The notes under the pieces: model-generated
The model's database searches: none
Told to the model about the DNA's origin: nothing
Seen by the model: only the letters and a program-made list of their open reading frames with translations
DNA from: a virus
Lineage: Duplodnaviria > Heunggongvirae > Uroviricota > Caudoviricetes
Length of the DNA stretch: 17,816 nucleotides
Virus record (IMG/VR): IMGVR_UViG_2939121850_000003
Strand: one strand, 5' to 3'
Program-made: the position numbers and the translations under genes
Part shown: piece after piece, positions 6,465-14,619 of the stretch
Position numbering within the stretch: the stretch's first letter is position 1
Layout of the letters: the number at the start of each line of letters is the position of its first letter

Positions 6465-7409
6465 TCACAACCAGCCGACGCTCTCTCGCCATTTATAATT
6501 AGTAACTTTATCATTTTCGCTTATTTTTTTAGATATAGAGCGCGGCTCTCTTCCTAGATACTCAGATATTTCTATCGGGGACAAATCAAAATCAACAAGC
6601 ATGACTCTAAGTTTTTCCATTTCCTTTAAAGTCCAAGGCTTGCCATAATTTTCATAAAGAGATACCTTATGCTCCCTGATAGTTCGCTTTCTCTGAGTTT
6701 CACTTTCCCTCTGAAAAATCTCGCTTTTAAATTGTGAACGGAACTCTTTACAGAAGTTGTTATCAGTTTTTTTGTTATATAGATTGCTAAAAATAAGCTG
6801 GGATGCCGGGTCTAAATCAGGTGTGTTAATAATGAAAACTTTGACCTTTTCCATATAGGGATATTCAATTTTACCCAATATGCTTAATTGCTTTATATTA
6901 AAAAAACCTCTCAAATCAAAAGATTTAATGAGCTTTGATTGGATTACACTTTCAATCCTGCTTGCATTTAAATAACAGTACTTTGCCATTGGAAGGGCCC
7001 ATACTACCAGTTGAGGAATATATTTTTCTAATGCAATGCTCTGCCAATCAGTATCAAAGGTTTGGCTTTTTGCTAGCATGTTTTTCGGCAAATCAGAATA
7101 CATTGTGGTAGATGCCCATATCTTATAATCATTCGCCAAGGCTTGATAGTATTTTGTGTGGTTATGAATTTTATAAGCTGACATGAAGCGATAAACGTCT
7201 TCGTCGTGACCAGCGTCGTAAATTGTTCGATTTCCTCTAAGATAACCGTCGTAATGTTCGGTTATCCTTCTACCTACATTACAACTTACCCCAACGTAAA
7301 CCACACGACTGAAAAGTCCTTTATGGACAATAAGATAAACTCCGCTACAGCCAGATTTCCTGGCCTCTGATAGAGAACCTAAAAATCTCCATTCCATAAT
7401 TAAATCCAT
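6465..7409 (-). CDS. GIY-YIG nuclease-domain protein (314 aa) with C-terminal HTH-like region
   Basis: N-terminal GVYLIVHKG...VVYVGVSCNVGRRITEHY matches the GIY-(N10)-YIG-(x)N...R...H nuclease signature. C-terminal WTLKEMEKLRVMLVDFDLSPIEISEYLGREPRSISKKI looks like a DNA-binding helix-turn-helix. The gene is strongly AT-rich relative to the flanking prophage genes (by eye). Confidence 0.8.
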   Translation of the reverse strand: MDLIMEWRFLGSLSEARKSGCSGVYLIVHKGLFSRVVYVGVSCNVGRRITEHYDGYLRGNRTIYDAGHDEDVYRFMSAYKIHNHTKYYQALANDYKIWASTTMYSDLPKNMLAKSQTFDTDWQSIALEKYIPQLVVWALPMAKYCYLNASRIESVIQSKLIKSFDLRGFFNIKQLSILGKIEYPYMEKVKVFIINTPDLDPASQLIFSNLYNKKTDNNFCKEFRSQFKSEIFQRESETQRKRTIREHKVSLYENYGKPWTLKEMEKLRVMLVDFDLSPIEISEYLGREPRSISKKISENDKVTNYKWRESVGWL

Positions 7410-7956: not shown

Positions 7957-9306
7957 TTATTCCGTTTTACATATCATAGTAGTCGATTGGAGAATATAGT
8001 TTCTGGGAATGTACTCTTCAAAGTGTTCGTCCTTTTTAAATACATGAACTACATTTGGGAATAATTGATAGTCAACAGGGTGTATAGCGTTTGGATTATG
8101 GTACATGTACATGGCTGTACACCATGGTTCTTGATAGTTAGGGTCACTTACATCGGCTGAAAATGGATGTGGGGCTGCATCCTGATCAGTTTTAACACCA
8201 CTGACGTACACTTTGAATCCACTCGCCTCTACACCTGCAAGAATTCCCATCCGGTTAAACTTAGGTATGGTTGCTTGAGTAGTGAGTAAAACGGCAGAAA
8301 CATAATTATTTTGTTCTGAGCCAAAAAAGTTCGACTTGATACTTCTATTTTCATCTGTATGTCTTTCAATAGAAATGCCTGACTCAATATCAATCCCGTA
8401 CAAATAGCTATGCAAGGCTTCGCTTGAGAAGGCCATGGACATTCTTTTTGAATAATCCTGCATTGCTATGACAAATGGTTTGTTCTTTGTATGGTTGAGT
8501 TCCCAGTAATGAACTTTCTCTGGCTCAGGGCAATGCCGGACTTTTTTTAATAAACTTCTTGCAAACTTAAAAGGCATGACATTTAGAACATGTTTTCTTA
8601 ATTCATCCATCTGTTCATCGTTAATGACTTTTCTTTCAAGAGGGGCTTCTGCTTCAGCAATGCTTACAGCCTCTACAGCAATTTCCACTCCAAATTTAGA
8701 TAGCAGAAAATCTGGTTGATTGTATTCTCTATTCATTTCAAAGTCGAGTTCATAAAATACAGCGTTCAAATATAATTCAAATAACCTTGAATTAAATGCA
8801 TCACTTTGAAAATCCCTTATAAATATTCCATCAGGATCTTTGAACCAGTATGCAAGTTCCTCAAGAACAATATATGCAGGGAAATGAAGAGGGTCTTCGA
8901 GGAGCATTTTTATATAAACATTCCTTTTTTTCGCTGGGACCTTACTCAAGAATAATGAAAAAGGTTTGGTTGATTCATCGCCTTGCATGAATGTACCATT
9001 TTGGTGCTGCGCCAGCATCTTTGGTATGTCATCGTTCAAATTATTAAGCAAGACATCCATTGAATCAAATGAAGCCAAGACGTTTATTGCTCTGAATTTT
9101 TTATCTAAATCCCGACCTAAGACTATTGCGTTAAAATCTTTATCAATATTGCATATGATTATTGTGGATAACAATGTTATCCCATTCCCCTCATATTTAA
9201 ACCAGCGTATCTCCTCAGAAAATGTCTTAAGGTAAGGTGAGCGACCGTAAAAATAAATATCAAATTGTTCTTTGCTGATCTCACTGAAGTGTAATCCTGC
9301 GTTCAT
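7957..9306 (-). CDS. Hypothetical protein (449 aa), no recognisable family
   Basis: Long uninterrupted ORF in the AT-rich block. ATG at 9306 is preceded by AAGGAA about 8 nt upstream on the minus strand. No Walker A, methyltransferase or other signature found by eye. Confidence 0.75.
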   Translation of the reverse strand: MNAGLHFSEISKEQFDIYFYGRSPYLKTFSEEIRWFKYEGNGITLLSTIIICNIDKDFNAIVLGRDLDKKFRAINVLASFDSMDVLLNNLNDDIPKMLAQHQNGTFMQGDESTKPFSLFLSKVPAKKRNVYIKMLLEDPLHFPAYIVLEELAYWFKDPDGIFIRDFQSDAFNSRLFELYLNAVFYELDFEMNREYNQPDFLLSKFGVEIAVEAVSIAEAEAPLERKVINDEQMDELRKHVLNVMPFKFARSLLKKVRHCPEPEKVHYWELNHTKNKPFVIAMQDYSKRMSMAFSSEALHSYLYGIDIESGISIERHTDENRSIKSNFFGSEQNNYVSAVLLTTQATIPKFNRMGILAGVEASGFKVYVSGVKTDQDAAPHPFSADVSDPNYQEPWCTAMYMYHNPNAIHPVDYQLFPNVVHVFKKDEHFEEYIPRNYILQSTTMICKTE

Positions 9307-9584: not shown

Positions 9585-9590
9585 AACCAT

Positions 9591-9623
9591 ACTCAAATCT
9601 CCCACATTGCAGGAGATTTGAGT
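9591..9623 (+). promoter_or_regulatory. Perfect 12-bp hairpin sequestering the recombinase Shine-Dalgarno (ACTCAAATCTCC-N9-GGAGATTTGAGT)
   Basis: Right arm 9612-9623 contains GGAG and ends one nucleotide before the ATG at 9624. The architecture (12-bp inverted arms, 9-nt spacer) could alternatively be a protein-binding or recombination core-type site. Confidence 0.6.
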
Positions 9624-10226
9624 ATGAACACGTCACCGTGGAACAAAGACCGTATCATAGGCCAAAAAAGACCACTTCAGATATCTCATATCTGGGGTAT
9701 CCGAATCCGACTTGAACTGGAAGGTAAAACTCGCGATTTAGCTCTGTTCAACATGGCCCTGGATAGTAAGCTTCGAGGCTGTGATCTGGTCAAACTCAAA
9801 GTATCTGATGTTGCATATGGTGGCTCTGTTTCAAGCAGAGCAACGGTGTTGCAACAGAAAACCGGTAGCCCTGTTCAATTTGAGATAACCAAAGGGACAA
9901 GAGAAGCTGTTGCTGCATTGATACAGCTTAGCAATTTGCACAGTAAAGACTTCTTGTTTCGGTCTAGGGTCGGAACTAACCAGCACATTTCAACCCGGCA
10001 ATACAACCGAATCTTTCATGGGGGGGTAGAAAAGCTTGGTCTCGAAGATTCGCTTTACAGCACACATTCCATGAGAAGAACAAAACCTTACCTGATCTAC
10101 AAGAAAACCAAGAATCTCCGGGTGATCCAACTTCTGTTGGGTCATAAGAAACTGGAAAGCACAGTCCGTTATCTGGGCATTGAAGTCGATGATGCGTTAG
10201 AGATTTCTGAATCGATTGAAGTCTAA
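9624..10226 (+). CDS. Short tyrosine recombinase (about 200 aa, FimB/FimE-like catalytic-domain-only integrase)
   Basis: From ATG 9624 (MNTSPW...); the ORF track's 9618 is a TTG. Contains an R box (TRDLALFNMALDSKLRGCDLVKLKVSDV), HSMRRT (H-x-x-R) and LLGHKKLESTVRYLG (GH...Y). Size and motif spacing match the FimB/FimE family of small invertase-type tyrosine recombinases. Confidence 0.8.
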   Translation: MNTSPWNKDRIIGQKRPLQISHIWGIRIRLELEGKTRDLALFNMALDSKLRGCDLVKLKVSDVAYGGSVSSRATVLQQKTGSPVQFEITKGTREAVAALIQLSNLHSKDFLFRSRVGTNQHISTRQYNRIFHGGVEKLGLEDSLYSTHSMRRTKPYLIYKKTKNLRVIQLLLGHKKLESTVRYLGIEVDDALEISESIEV

Positions 10227-10230
10227 GGTT

Positions 10231-10268
10231 GTCAGGGCTGCAACAGCAGCCCTGTGCCATAAGCGGAA
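10231..10268 (+). repeat. Stem-loop (CAGGGCTG-caacag-CAGCCCTG) and possible expanded variant of the junction element (copy E)
   Basis: 8-bp perfect stem beginning 7 nt after the recombinase stop, with no U-tract. The segment begins GTCAGG and ends CATAAGCGGA, loosely resembling the GTCC...GGAC elements. Confidence 0.4.
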
Positions 10269-10585
10269 GTATTTAACAACTATCAGTGTTGTTCAACAGA
10301 TAAAGGGGCACTTGATTTTTTCTGTTCTCAGGAAATGATAAAAGCGCGTCGGTTCAAGCCTGCTTAACGGGAGTTTGTTAATCCTGTTGCCGTGACGTTT
10401 TGACACCATTATGATGGGGAGACACTTAATGTATGAAGGTTCCGCCACTTATACCTGTCCAACAACTGCCTCGGATGTTTCTTTGTATGAATAAGTGGTA
10501 ATGAGTAGTGAATCGCTAACAGTCACCCGAACAATCGGTGCCTGCAATTAATTCTATATTCTAAACGAGGGGGAGATTATTACAC

Positions 10586-11566
10586 ATGAAATTTAAGGAC
10601 AAGAACCTTAAGGCTCTCGCGGAATGTATCATAGGAGATAATAAGGCATTTCTGTATCGTTCAAGCAGTCACATCACTGAATTTTTCCAGGACTGCGGCA
10701 TGGATGTTACTCATGACGGATCCACTCGGTGGAAATGGACGGCCCAGAGGCTTGAAGAACTTCTTTATGAGCCACAGTCAAAGCCACATACTTTGCCGGA
10801 AAGGTTTGTTCATGTGCTCAGAACTTTAATGTTAAAAGAAGATGCAATGGATGACGATCCAGGAAGATTAAAGGCGCTTGAAGAACTGAACAAGCCTTTG
10901 ATGCGGGAAGGCTATGAGGCATTCTATGGTGACGATCGCCTTTTGTATATACGCCATACCGATACCAAAACGGTTTCAGTCAGTAATAACCCTCATCGGC
11001 CCTTAACGCCTCACGAAGTAGAATGCAGAAGGTTACTGACCGCGTTTCTTGATACCTGCTCAGAAGATGAGTTAATAGAAGATATTCTCCTTCCTTTATT
11101 CCGGCAACTTGGTTTTCACCGGATAACAGCAGTGGGACATAAAGATAAAGCGCTGGAATACGGGAAAGACATCTGGATGAAGTTCACACTGCCAACTCAG
11201 CATGTTCTTTATTTCGGCATTCAGGCAAAAAAAGGTAAGTTGGATGCGTCCGGTGCCAGCAAATCTACGAATTCAAACGTGGCAGAAATCTTCAACCAGG
11301 TACTGATGATGCTTGGCCATGAAATATTTGACCCAGAAACAAATAGAAAGGTGCTGGTAGATCATGCCTTTATCGTTGCTGGCGGAGAAATTACTAAACA
11401 GGCGAGGAACTGGCTGGGCGGGAAACTTGATGCCAGCAAAAGAAGCCAGATAATATTTATGGACCGGGAAGACATTCTTAATTTATATACTGTAAGTAAT
11501 GTACCTCTGCCAACAGGTGCTCTCATCTCTGATGATGCCGTTAAGAACGATGATATTCCTTTCTAA
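10586..11566 (+). CDS. Protein with C-terminal Mrr-like PD-(D/E)XK restriction-endonuclease-type motif and uncharacterised N-terminal domain (326 aa)
   Basis: ATG at 10586 preceded by gaGGGGGAGa. C-terminal segment ITAVGHKDKALEYGKDIWMKF...HVLYFGIQAKKGK shows the D...(I/V)QxK arrangement of Mrr-type nuclease cores. The N-terminal 170 aa or so have no motif I recognise. Confidence 0.75.
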   Translation: MKFKDKNLKALAECIIGDNKAFLYRSSSHITEFFQDCGMDVTHDGSTRWKWTAQRLEELLYEPQSKPHTLPERFVHVLRTLMLKEDAMDDDPGRLKALEELNKPLMREGYEAFYGDDRLLYIRHTDTKTVSVSNNPHRPLTPHEVECRRLLTAFLDTCSEDELIEDILLPLFRQLGFHRITAVGHKDKALEYGKDIWMKFTLPTQHVLYFGIQAKKGKLDASGASKSTNSNVAEIFNQVLMMLGHEIFDPETNRKVLVDHAFIVAGGEITKQARNWLGGKLDASKRSQIIFMDREDILNLYTVSNVPLPTGALISDDAVKNDDIPF

Positions 11567-12083: not shown

Positions 12084-12237
12084 TTTTATATTGGCGAGGT
12101 GACGGGAGTTAAGTAGAATTGCTGCGGGTGCTTGAGGCTATCTGCCTCAGGCATGAACACCAAAGGCAGATAGAGAAAAGCCCCAGTTAACATTACGCGT
12201 CCTGCAAGACGTTTAACATTAATCTGAGGCTCAATCT

Positions 12238-12450
12238 ATGAACGGCAAATCTAGGTTAGCCTCTTACGTGCCGAAAGGCAAGGAGAAGCAGGCTATGAAG
12301 CAGCAAAAGGCGATGTTAATCGCCCTGATCGTCATCTGTTTAACCGTCATAATGACGGCACTGGTAACGAGGAAAGACCTCTGCGAGGTACGAATCCGAA
12401 CCGGCCAGACGGAGGTCGCTGTCTTCACAGCTTACGAACCTGAGGAGTAA
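12238..12450 (+). CDS. mok-like in-frame leader extension of the hok gene (70 aa reading frame)
   Basis: The ORF starts 19 codons upstream of the hok start in the same frame, as in chromosomal mok/hok loci. Whether it is translated independently is inferred. Confidence 0.45.
   Translation: MNGKSRLASYVPKGKEKQAMKQQKAMLIALIVICLTVIMTALVTRKDLCEVRIRTGQTEVAVFTAYEPEE
12295..12450 (+). CDS. hokD: Hok/Gef-family type I toxin (51 aa), hokD/relF-type
   Basis: MKQQKAMLIALIVICLTVIMTALVTRKDLCEVRIRTGQTEVAVFTAYEPEE matches my recollection of E. coli HokD (RelF) almost exactly and the Hok family signature (TRKDLCEV...E/TEVAAF). Internal ATG at 12295. Confidence 0.85.
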   Translation: MKQQKAMLIALIVICLTVIMTALVTRKDLCEVRIRTGQTEVAVFTAYEPEE

Positions 12451-13263: not shown

Positions 13264-14619
13264 GTGCGGGTATTACTTCGACCTGTTCTGGTACCGGAAC
13301 TCGGGCTGGTGGTCGTTAAGCCGGGCCGTGAATCCATGCCGGTATTCCACAATACCCGGGTAACCGAAGCGCTCGACACGACATTAGGACTGCTTACAAA
13401 AACAGGACGAGACTGGAACACGCAGCATACTGATAACATTAATAAATTTATACCAATTGCAGGCAGTACAAACGGCCCGGCAGGCTCTATGGTTCTTGGC
13501 GGCATTCATGTTCAATTTAGTAAAAATTATGCTGTGCAGTTCGGAGGCCGCAATTCCGGTTTTTGGGGAAGAACAATTGAAAATGGAACGACACAGGAAT
13601 GGAAGAAATTACTAACAGTAGACGATCTCAATTCATCTACCGATCTTGCTGTCAGGTCATTAACCACATCTAACCCGGTAAAATCTGGCGGAGGGCGAAT
13701 TGATGTCCTTGGAAGCACGTCAGACTATAGCAAAATGGATTGCTTTGTACGTGGGTTTGATAGCACCGGTAATTCTCTCGTGTGGGCGTTGGGTTCATCA
13801 GTCGGCGTAAGTAAGATGCTATCGCTAAAAAATTTCTTTAGCGGAGCTGAGATACTGTTAAATGGTAATGACGGCGCGGTTCAACTCAAAACAGGTGCTG
13901 TTAACGGGGCTACAGCGCAGACGCTCACTATCAACAAGAATGAGGTTAACTCAACCGTTGATTTAACCCTTACAAAGCAATCAGGGACTGGTAATCGTTT
14001 TGTTTTACAGAACTCAGGTAATGCAGAACTACCGTTTTCTGTCAGGGTGTGGGGTTCCAGTACTCGACAAAACGTTTTTGAGGTTGGAACGTCTGCTGCG
14101 TATCTGTTTTATGCGCAAAAAACGTCAGCAGGCCAGTTGTTTGATGTAAATGGCGCTATTAATTGCACAACGCTGAATCAGTCATCAGACCGCGACCTTA
14201 AAGACGATATTCTCGTTATCAGCGACGCGACGAAAGCAATCCGTAAAATGAACGGATACACCTACACGCTCAAGGAAAACGGGATGCCTTATGCTGGCGT
14301 TATTGCACAGGAAGTAATGGAGGCGATACCAGAAGCTGTGGGATCGTTTACTCATTATGGTGAAGAGTTGCAAGGTCCGACCGTTGACGGCAACGAGCTA
14401 CGCGAAGAAACTCGCTATCTTAATGTTGACTACTCCGCCGTGACGGGTTTACTTGTTCAGGTCGCCCGTGAAACAGATGATCGCGTTACCGCGCTGGAAG
14501 AGGAAAACACAACGCTACGTCAAAATCTGGCAACAGCAGGCACCCGGATCAGCACTCTGGAAAATCAGGTAAGCGAACTGGTTGCACTTGTCCGGCAGTT
14601 AACAGGAAGCGAACATTGA
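13264..14619 (+). CDS. Phage tail fibre protein, C-terminal fragment with S74-type intramolecular chaperone domain
   Basis: C-terminal region has the SDxxxK Ser-Lys dyad context (SSDRDLKDDILVISDATKAIRKMNGYTYTL...) and a coiled-coil tail typical of self-cleaving tail-fibre or tailspike chaperone domains. Upstream Gly/Ser/Thr/Asn-rich beta-type repeats. The N-terminus (GTG start, odd MRVLLRPVLVPELG) lacks a tail-attachment domain, so the gene is probably truncated. Confidence 0.75.
   Translation: MRVLLRPVLVPELGLVVVKPGRESMPVFHNTRVTEALDTTLGLLTKTGRDWNTQHTDNINKFIPIAGSTNGPAGSMVLGGIHVQFSKNYAVQFGGRNSGFWGRTIENGTTQEWKKLLTVDDLNSSTDLAVRSLTTSNPVKSGGGRIDVLGSTSDYSKMDCFVRGFDSTGNSLVWALGSSVGVSKMLSLKNFFSGAEILLNGNDGAVQLKTGAVNGATAQTLTINKNEVNSTVDLTLTKQSGTGNRFVLQNSGNAELPFSVRVWGSSTRQNVFEVGTSAAYLFYAQKTSAGQLFDVNGAINCTTLNQSSDRDLKDDILVISDATKAIRKMNGYTYTLKENGMPYAGVIAQEVMEAIPEAVGSFTHYGEELQGPTVDGNELREETRYLNVDYSAVTGLLVQVARETDDRVTALEEENTTLRQNLATAGTRISTLENQVSELVALVRQLTGSEH

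Follow-up and report, generated by a model that had tools for sequence, protein, structure and literature searches.

The C-terminal tip of SSB, a protein that binds single-stranded DNA, reads ...DFDDDIPF and acts as a hub peptide, recruiting about 17 genome-maintenance proteins or more, and NucS/EndoMS is a PD-(D/E)XK mismatch endonuclease whose C-terminal peptide binds the sliding clamp (PCNA or beta clamp). Within the SSB tip, the hexapeptide DDDIPF is referred to as SSB-Ct (PMC5872125), and FDDDIPF represents the last seven residues of Escherichia coli SSB (PMC13490951). A similar peptide terminates a putative nuclease encoded in the IMG/VR virus record IMGVR_UViG_2939121850_000003. This stretch of 17,816 nt, in the following referred to as the window, represents a cryptic lambdoid prophage of the Qin type, located in E. 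coli between rspB and ydfJ. The target gene (10586..11566, + strand) is a complete open reading frame (ORF) with an ATG start codon, encoding 326 aa followed by a stop codon. Its product is annotated as 'hypothetical protein' in RefSeq (WP_023147794.1), and the gene is present with at least 99% identity in 187 of 5,426 complete E. coli genomes. We give an even chance to the reading that the gene encodes a stand-alone, mobile PD-(D/E)XK endonuclease of the Mrr/FokI branch, in which docking of the SSB-like tip would localize DNA cutting and which would, as a single gene, confer defence against phages or plasmids or exclude them.

The SSB-like tip is the most informative feature of the protein and was absent from a first-pass annotation of the window, which had been made from the sequence alone. 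It comprises the residues KNDDIPF-COOH (aa 320-326; 11543..11563, + strand), resembling the tip of E. coli SSB, and the last 10-12 residues of the target read ...SDDAVKNDDIPF. The tip is preceded by a variable low-confidence linker (aa 306-319; 11501..11542, + strand) whose length differs among homologues and which has a predicted local distance difference test (pLDDT) score of 57-69 in the AlphaFold2 (AF2) model. In the linker region, aa 310 and 313-320 show column identities of 0.13-0.35 and aa 311-312 of 0.60 and 0.78, compared to >0.9 in the nuclease core. The residues at aa 306-309 (VPLP in the target; 'LPLP' before the linker of the family) are conserved with column identities of 0.57-1.00. 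The protein thus ends in the manner of SSB, with a disordered linker followed by an acidic tip that has (I/L/V/P)-P-F as final residues.

Conservation was analyzed with 90 relatives reaching down to about 40% identity (sequences spanning 38-78%). F326 is present in all of these, and P325 has a conservation of at least 90%. In a set of 252 full-length relatives, 206 end in [DE]x0-1[IVLM]P[FWY] and most of the other 46 in an acidic-x-PF variant; the individual endings are DIPF (130), EIPF (25), DVPF (21), and DLPF (11). The tip is retained in members that are just 39-46% identical to the target, and the consensus of the family, FDDDIPF, equals the tip sequence of SSB. A Pfam search for the SSB domain itself (PF00436, an oligonucleotide/oligosaccharide-binding (OB) fold) found no match in the target or in the 90 relatives, and the same search detected a genuine SSB at one of the other loci with an E-value of 2.9e-29. 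Relatives that have only the nuclease domain, combined with other N-terminal domains, do not carry an SSB-like tip, which argues for a functional coupling of the tip with the N-terminal domain.

In 93 loci with a total of 3,707 ORFs (70 aa or longer), SSB-like endings were found only in family members, in one true SSB, and in one unknown ORF. The true SSB (L071:13455-13889, + strand; tip ...DDSDIPF) is encoded in Phyllobacterium about 2.5 kb downstream of a family member with the tip ...PTDDIPF and is the protein with the Pfam match mentioned above. This suggests a plasmid or integrative and conjugative element in which both tails coexist. The unknown ORF (L044:4905-5411, - strand) encodes 168 aa without a Pfam match, ends in ...PPDDEMPF, and comes from a contig of Blastocatellia, on which a frameshifted family member is found at a distance of about 5 kb. 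Mimics of the SSB tail may thus also occur in further non-SSB proteins of such islands.

As judged from the sequences, the tip follows the SSB variant of the respective host. Gamma- and beta-proteobacterial copies have F at position -7 in 16 of 30 and D at position -4 in 22 of 30 cases, and are thus FDDDIPF-like. Copies from alpha-proteobacteria have L at -7 in 13 of 28 cases versus 0 of 49 elsewhere (Fisher p 2e-7) and E at -4 in 17 of 28 cases versus 6 of 30 in gamma- and beta-proteobacteria (p 0.003), and several alpha-proteobacterial tips are exactly LDDEIPF. The SSB tail LDDEIPF has been reported for R. sphaeroides and for 5,795 of 18,841 alpha-proteobacterial assemblies (PMC13490951). 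Copies on plasmids of Mycobacteriales end in ...SNDEPPF in Rhodococcus and in ...TTDEPPF in Mycobacterium lentiflavum; the SSB-Ct of M. smegmatis is GADDEPPF (PMC3575820). On a neighbour-joining tree of the core protein, E at -4 accounts for 38 changes and L at -7 for 25. The tip characters therefore change many times on the core tree, and the pattern does not derive from one inherited substitution.

That the tips reproduce the SSB variants of individual lineages (LDDEIPF for alpha-proteobacteria, DEPPF for Mycobacteriales) bears on the alternative that the tip is not an SSB mimic at all and that the likeness to SSB is coincidental or partial. The tip would then be an intra- or intermolecular ligand of the protein's own N-terminal domain, involved in autoinhibition or head-to-tail assembly, or a stability signal. 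The exclusive occurrence of the tip together with this N-terminal domain would fit such a role, and invariant Arg, Trp, and His residues of the domain could form a pocket for a carboxylate and a Phe residue. An internal ligand would have no reason to reproduce the variants of different lineages, however, and AF2 does not place the tail on the N-terminal domain with confidence. We regard this explanation as improbable.

The nuclease domain comprises aa 158-305 (11057..11500, + strand). A first AF2 model based on 39 close homologues was too poor for interpretation (pLDDT 66) and was rebuilt from 90 diverse sequences, resulting in a pLDDT of 87. The model shows the alpha-beta-beta-beta-alpha-beta core of PD-(D/E)XK nucleases and is closest to Mrr/FokI-type enzymes. 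Structure comparison of the model listed AspBHI (9.9), FokI (9.7), AF1548 (9.1), LlaBIII (8.6), and N.BspD6I (8.3), followed by MspJI (8.0), Avs4 (7.6), NucS (7.5), HamA (7.1), and Cap4 (7.0). Foldseek retrieved AspBHI with an E-value of 3.5e-4 and a probability of 1.0, and fold matches in BFVD were Mrr-domain and RPB5 proteins.

The putative catalytic residues of this core are conserved. An acidic pair, E160-D161 (11063..11068, + strand), opens the first core helix, which also carries E165, and is invariant in the 90 sequences as well as in a distant set of 15 sequences. The putative metal-binding D195 (11168..11170, + strand) opens strand beta2; it is at least 90% conserved among the 90 relatives and invariant in the distant set. 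The (D/E/Q)xK motif Q213-A-K215 (11222..11230, + strand) is located on strand beta3, with Q213 being invariant and K215 being at least 90% conserved in the larger set and invariant in the distant one. The motif strings KDIWMKF (aa 194-200) and GIQAKKGK (aa 211-218), on which the first-pass annotation had based its proposal of an Mrr-type D...QxK core, are present in the ORF exactly as it described them; the residues of the core are conserved and, in a collinear, statistically weak profile alignment, fall on D203...Q219-A-K221 of Mrr. Directly in front of the putative catalytic Asp is the loop GHKDKALEYG (aa 184-193; 11135-11164), which is nearly invariant and, alone in the protein, could not be modelled by AF2 (pLDDT <50). 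Binding of DNA, a metal, or a partner is a possible function of this loop, which may become ordered only in a complex.

At the level of sequence profiles, Mrr_cat (PF04471) is the sole recurrent Pfam family. It was detected in 19 of the 90 relatives, in all cases below threshold (E-values from 3e-4 to 0.1). One relative, P0140, reaches 18.4 bits over profile positions 4-112 of 115, and neither the target nor any of the 90 relatives attains the gathering threshold of 21 bits. The first-pass annotation had named this profile as a check of its assignment; the target itself does not match it and the relatives provide sub-threshold hits only. A comparison of the family profile with a profile of 121 Mrr sequences by hhalign yielded a collinear alignment of 123 columns, in which D195 is placed on D203 and Q213-A-K215 on Q219-A-K221, with weak statistics (E 0.0072, probability 5%). 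The same alignment pairs FIVAGGEITKQARNWL with VFITTSGFTSQARDFA and IIFMDREDILNL with MVLVDGERLVHL. It was obtained only by local hhalign with a low threshold for maximum accuracy (MAC) alignment; pairwise, profile-versus-single-sequence, and global hhalign comparisons with E. coli Mrr were non-significant or meaningless (pairwise z 0.9), and a profile of the C-terminal domain produced only spurious matches among PDB sequences. The assignment to the Mrr-type fold holds, and by sequence the family is an outlier that is not captured by Pfam.

The nuclease domain also occurs outside the family. The distant relatives P0235, P0240, P0257, P0258, and P0268 contain the same nuclease module with 35-41% identity over the domain and other N-terminal domains, one of which is a Schlafen/AlbA_2 domain (SLFN_AlbA_2, E 3e-14). 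The nuclease can thus be considered a module, paired with interchangeable N-terminal domains in the way known from many defence proteins. It belongs to a broader, uncharacterized set of two-domain nucleases.

The N-terminal domain of the target (aa 1 to about 130; 10586..10975, + strand) consists of five helices and a beta-hairpin and is modelled by AF2 with a pLDDT of 87-98. It is connected to the nuclease domain by an inter-domain linker and helix (aa 131-157; 10976..11056, + strand), in which AF2 predicts a helix at H142-157 and the pLDDT is lower at aa 131-140. The domain is strongly conserved, for example at F22, Y24-R25-S26-S27, F33-F34, H43-D-G-S-T-R48, and W51. No recurrent Pfam family was found in the N-terminal domains of the 90 members, and no fold match in structure comparison, Foldseek, or BFVD could be attributed to aa 1-130. 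The first-pass annotation had regarded this part as an unrecognized domain of roughly 170 aa. It is indeed unrecognized, and it is shorter than proposed, with about 130 aa plus the linker helix; structure prediction, suggested there as a way to identify it, delivered a confident model and no recognizable fold. The only hint of any kind came from a search of the 90-sequence profile against the PDB, in which FtsZ alone was matched (E about 0.1; target aa 37-125, about 10694-10960, versus FtsZ residues about 126-238). Several FtsZ structures were retrieved, which are not independent of each other and remain below significance, and the similarity is probably due to chance.

These properties of the two domains have to be weighed against the possibility of a classical type IV modification-dependent restriction enzyme, in which a modified base would be recognized by the N-terminal domain and cleavage performed by the Mrr-like domain, the tip being an accessory without a part in defining the mechanism. 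AspBHI and MspJI, the closest structures, are modification-dependent; a reader followed by a nuclease is the architecture that would be expected, and the spacing D-x17-QAK resembles the D...QxK motif of Mrr. The N-terminal domain, however, has no similarity in sequence or fold to SRA, Mrr_N (PF14338), winged-helix, or other known readers of modified bases, and a type IV enzyme would leave the conservation of the tip, its match to the host, and its restriction to this N-terminal domain unexplained. The absence of a partner enzyme also agrees with type IV restriction: searches of the window proteins revealed no methyltransferase, and no conserved neighbour or partner gene or operon was found within +/-4 kb at 92 loci, so that the nuclease stands alone, as the first-pass annotation had stated. 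Taken together, we consider a classical type IV enzyme unlikely.

Searches with the target retrieved 3,877 homologous proteins at E<=1e-3. The best 120 of these are almost all 324-329 aa in length (a few are shorter, with 288 or 319 aa) and are 70-99% identical across phyla. A scan of one genome per species identified 573 stretches encoding a relative, from alpha-, beta-, gamma-, and delta-proteobacteria, cyanobacteria, Acidobacteriota, Planctomycetota, Verrucomicrobiota, Bacteroidales, Synergistota, and others. The gene is under strong purifying selection, with dN/dS values of 0.09-0.22 in comparison with enterobacterial copies; compared with all non-enterobacterial copies, dS is saturated and dN is 0.2-0.3. 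In a control with canonical Mrr, the best 120 relatives were 71-100% identical. Canonical Mrr is thus about equally conserved, and the conservation of the family is notable and not unique. An earlier interpretation of this 'extreme conservation' as a unique oddity was tempered for this reason.

The family is carried by 47 plasmids, 25 of which are conjugative, including IncF plasmids and plasmids of Rhodococcus, Mycobacterium, and Corynebacterium. At other loci, the gene resides in defence or mobile-element islands of varying composition, as it does in the window, where a PD-T7-1 homologue is encoded nearby. The largest cluster of neighbouring genes within +/-4 kb, encoding type I HsdR, was present at only 5 of the 92 loci. 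Immediate neighbours at 54 diverse loci include HsdR, integrases, resolvases, DRT6, PD-T4-3, PDC-S15, CBASS effectors, and RT-Toprim, and individual loci encode DISARM-like proteins, HipA, VapBC, a KAP NTPase, AAA_15/23 ATPases, AbiEii, and RHS toxins. In Edwardsiella, the cargo that follows an island integrase starts with the family gene, and in pCgly1 it directly follows the gene for a MobF relaxase. A Klebsiella chromosome (L009:7202-10747) and an E. coli IncF plasmid (L097:7218-10759) share a trio of vapBC, the target gene, and a convergent gene for a 523-aa AAA_15/AAA_23 ATPase. Neither the window nor other taxa contain this ATPase gene, which is therefore not obligatory as a partner; it may be a defence gene that travels along.

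This distribution has also to be considered with regard to a role as helper of mobile elements, in which the SSB-tail decoy would divert or recruit SSB clients of the host (exonucleases, helicases, and restart proteins) during establishment, recombination, or maintenance of plasmids and islands, and the nuclease would process the element's own or the host's DNA. The occurrence on 47 plasmids, more than half of them conjugative, the positions directly after the MobF relaxase and after island integrases, the near-absence from phage genomes, and the SSB gene about 2.5 kb away in Phyllobacterium are all in line with such a function, and very strong purifying selection would fit contact with conserved host machinery. 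However, the copy on the E. coli IncF plasmid is located amid toxin-antitoxin genes and an AAA ATPase gene, outside an ssb/psiB leading region, and many copies are chromosomal and surrounded by defence genes. In addition, one tail per subunit would compete poorly with the abundant tetrameric SSB. A helper function thus appears slightly less probable still than type IV restriction.

For the preferred reading as a single-gene defence or exclusion system, the following sequence of events is conceivable. The family-specific and very conserved N-terminal domain would act as a targeting, sensing, or oligomerization module, and the catalytic domain with E160/D161, D195, and Q213-A-K215 would cut DNA. 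The disordered linker would present a host-matched copy of the SSB tip, which could dock into the SSB-tail pockets of genome-maintenance proteins of the host or of an invader, such as ExoI, RecQ, PriA, the chi subunit, RecO, or phage or plasmid recombinases. The variation of the tip with the host lends indirect support to binding of SSB-interacting proteins. Alternatively, the tip might dock on the OB fold of SSB itself. Either type of docking could confine cutting to, or release it at, SSB-marked intermediates of replication, of recombination, or of incoming single-stranded DNA, and the outcome would be exclusion of phages or plasmids by a single gene. In a more specific version, which we put forward tentatively and with clearly less confidence, the target would be the founding member of a family of mobile nucleases in which the host-matched tip is a decoy serving as bait for SSB-docking proteins. 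The nuclease would be localized or unleashed when such a client binds, or when it competes with an autoinhibitory contact of the tail with the N-terminal domain. The bait could be directed at host clients or at replication and recombination proteins of the invader, for example RecT/Red-beta-type recombinases, helicases, or primases.

Several points weigh against an SSB-guided defence nuclease. The fold, the conserved catalytic motif, the tip with its match to the host, the lack of a partner gene, and the location in mobile-element and defence islands are observed, whereas cleavage of DNA, docking of the tip on SSB clients, and a part in defence are deduced. AF2 does not dock the tail confidently anywhere (pLDDT about 57). 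With respect to the match between tip and host, the SSB tails used for comparison are literature values for representative taxa and mostly not those of each individual genome, the statistics are based on non-independent sequences, and the Corynebacterium copy ends in NNELPF. Support for homology to Mrr at the sequence level is weak (hhalign E 0.007, probability 5%; pairwise z 0.9). The target has no match at E<=0.1 in Pfam, PADLOC (PADLOC-DB v2.0.0), NCBIfam, or PHROGs, and at this cut-off it matches none of the PADLOC models of known or candidate defence proteins; sequence searches of the PDB also gave no match for the single protein or for a 39-sequence profile. Strong conservation is unusual for genes in an arms race, although canonical Mrr is equally conserved. 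Finally, family members were found in 0 of 50,697 phage genomes and in just 18 IMG/VR contigs, and this near-absence from phage collections does not support a general role in superinfection exclusion by prophages.

Within the window, the target gene is part of a decayed prophage with the gene order integrase, excisionase, RecE-like exonuclease, dicB, ydfD, a replication O-like gene, a DUF977 gene, a gene for a hypothetical protein of 314 aa, the PD-T7-1 gene, a gene for a tyrosine recombinase of 202 aa, the target gene, hok/sok, rem, and a tail-fibre remnant. The PD-T7-1 homologue (7957..9306, - strand; 449 aa) was identified with PADLOC (E 8.9e-157). It also matches PD-T7-5 (3e-40) and PHROG 8571 and is labelled 'hypothetical protein' in RefSeq. 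With this gene two genes upstream of the target, the respective part of the prophage represents a small defence island. The 314-aa protein (6465..7409, - strand), encoded between the replication genes of the prophage and the PD-T7-1 gene, has no more than a faint match to GIY-YIG at its N-terminus (Pfam E 0.017; group I intron endonuclease E 0.025) and could likewise act as a nuclease or in defence.

The tyrosine recombinase (9618..10226, + strand; 202 aa, TTG start) consists of the catalytic domain only (Phage_integrase E 2e-17) and has weak matches to models of FimB-type invertases. The first-pass annotation had placed the target directly downstream of this recombinase. The position is correct, with the target starting 360 nt downstream, and the proximity is incidental; a linkage of the two genes was not found in any other genome examined. 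Among enterobacterial copies, conservation at the DNA level covers the gene and 120-340 nt upstream of it; it begins at 10464 in comparison with the Klebsiella locus (L009) and at 10246 in comparison with a plasmid-like Yersinia contig (L011/L012). As the conserved DNA begins just past the terminator hairpin of the recombinase gene, the recombinase is an accidental neighbour. The non-coding stretch at 10464..10585 (+ strand), which travels with the gene, presumably contains the promoter and the ribosome-binding site; a Shine-Dalgarno-like GAGGGGGAG can be read at about 10568-10576 (+ strand), approximately 9 nt 5' of the target start. A perfect 15-nt inverted repeat (9588-9602 and 9612-9626) overlaps the start codon of the recombinase gene. 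A FimB-like invertible promoter between recombinase and target was considered and rejected, as only weak, chance-level inverted repeats are present there, and no convincing invertible segment was found near the recombinase. In sum, the first-pass interpretation of the target is partly supported: the conserved D...QxK core, the unrecognized N-terminal domain, and the solitary position agree with it, and the role it suggested, in type IV-like restriction or as an abortive-infection effector, stays hypothetical.

Just downstream of the target is a hok/sok type I toxin-antitoxin module (12126..12450, + strand), with sok detected by Rfam (12126-12300; 111.7 bits) and a Hok/Gef ORF at 12238..12450 (Pfam E 4e-23). 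It is followed by rem and by the tail-fibre remnant (13264..14619, + strand), which contains an S74 peptidase/chaperone domain (PHROG 6578, E 6e-188). The first 33 residues of the remnant match unrelated PHROGs (the HNH endonuclease phrog_96 and phrog_11007), and the gene looks like a fusion made by a deletion in the decayed prophage. At this site, the window is shorter than the corresponding region of strain UK_Dog_Liverpool (L001), which retains DUF968, rusA, an antiterminator gene, and tRNA genes.

The family is widespread, wholly unannotated, and missing from current defence databases, with plasmid copies in both proteobacteria and actinobacteria. If the tip engages SSB clients, the protein would represent a natural example of the hub peptide of SSB being borrowed by another enzyme, and would offer a simple, testable model for how a solitary nuclease without a methyltransferase spares its host and yet finds foreign or replicating DNA. 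Should the tip act as decoy, mimicry of a hub peptide would constitute a new principle of immune sensing and targeting, and hosts and mobile elements would be in conflict over the SSB network. As natural reporters, the host-matched tails could indicate the specificity of SSB tails, which is relevant for the portability of recombineering and for inhibitors of SSB interactions. If the tail is irrelevant, the finding shrinks to an ordinary divergent Mrr-like nuclease in a defence island. A literature search, itself incomplete, found no description of a non-SSB nuclease with an SSB-Ct tail and no citation of the accessions of the family. The novelty lies in the combination of an Mrr-like solitary nuclease, below the Mrr_cat threshold, with a new N-terminal domain and a mimic of a hub peptide.

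In comparison with the modification-dependent enzymes MspJI and AspBHI (type IV/IIM), the N-terminal domain of the target is not SRA-like, identities are 11-15%, and neither of the two enzymes has an SSB-type tail. E. coli Mrr (EcoKMrr), which is composed of PF04471 and PF14338 and has E172, D203, and Q219-A-K221 as key residues, shares collinear blocks with the target, namely the helix with the acidic residue followed by LG(F/Y), D195/D203, and QAK/QAK. Further blocks place GGEITKQAR on SGFTSQAR and FMDRED(I)L on LVDGERL, and both families are very conserved across phyla. In contrast to Mrr, the target remains below the Pfam threshold and lacks the Mrr_N winged helix, and its family has the additional invariant residues H185, K188, E191, D249, and D259-H260 as well as the SSB-like tail. 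Mrr/REase-type effector domains are also found in the defence proteins Avs4, Cap4, HamA of Hachiman, and SduA of Shedu; unlike these, the target has no STAND, SAVED, or helicase partner and no PADLOC match, and acts alone.

With SSB, the target shares the disordered linker, the acidic stretch, the terminal (I/L/V/P)-P-F, and the reproduction of lineage variants. It differs from SSB in that it has no OB fold and carries the peptide on a nuclease, and the tip of the E. coli copy, KNDDIPF, is less acidic and has no Phe at -7. NucS/EndoMS, whose N-terminal domain is unrelated to that of the target, binds a hub protein by means of its peptide, whereas the target carries the hub's own peptide. By analogy, the predicted partners of the target would be the clients of the hub and not the hub itself. 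A related use of the tip has been described for the phage SSB-like protein Bas52_0087, the C-terminal FDDDIPF of which is taken to engage SSB clients of the host such as SbcB, and which together with SbcB controls DRT10 (bioRxiv 10.64898/2026.04.29.721553). Bas52_0087 is phage-encoded and a genuine SSB-like protein with an OB fold, whereas the target is a nuclease encoded on plasmids, islands, and a prophage remnant. The control of DRT10 by Bas52_0087 and SbcB means that the network of proteins recognizing the SSB tip has already been implicated in phage defence.

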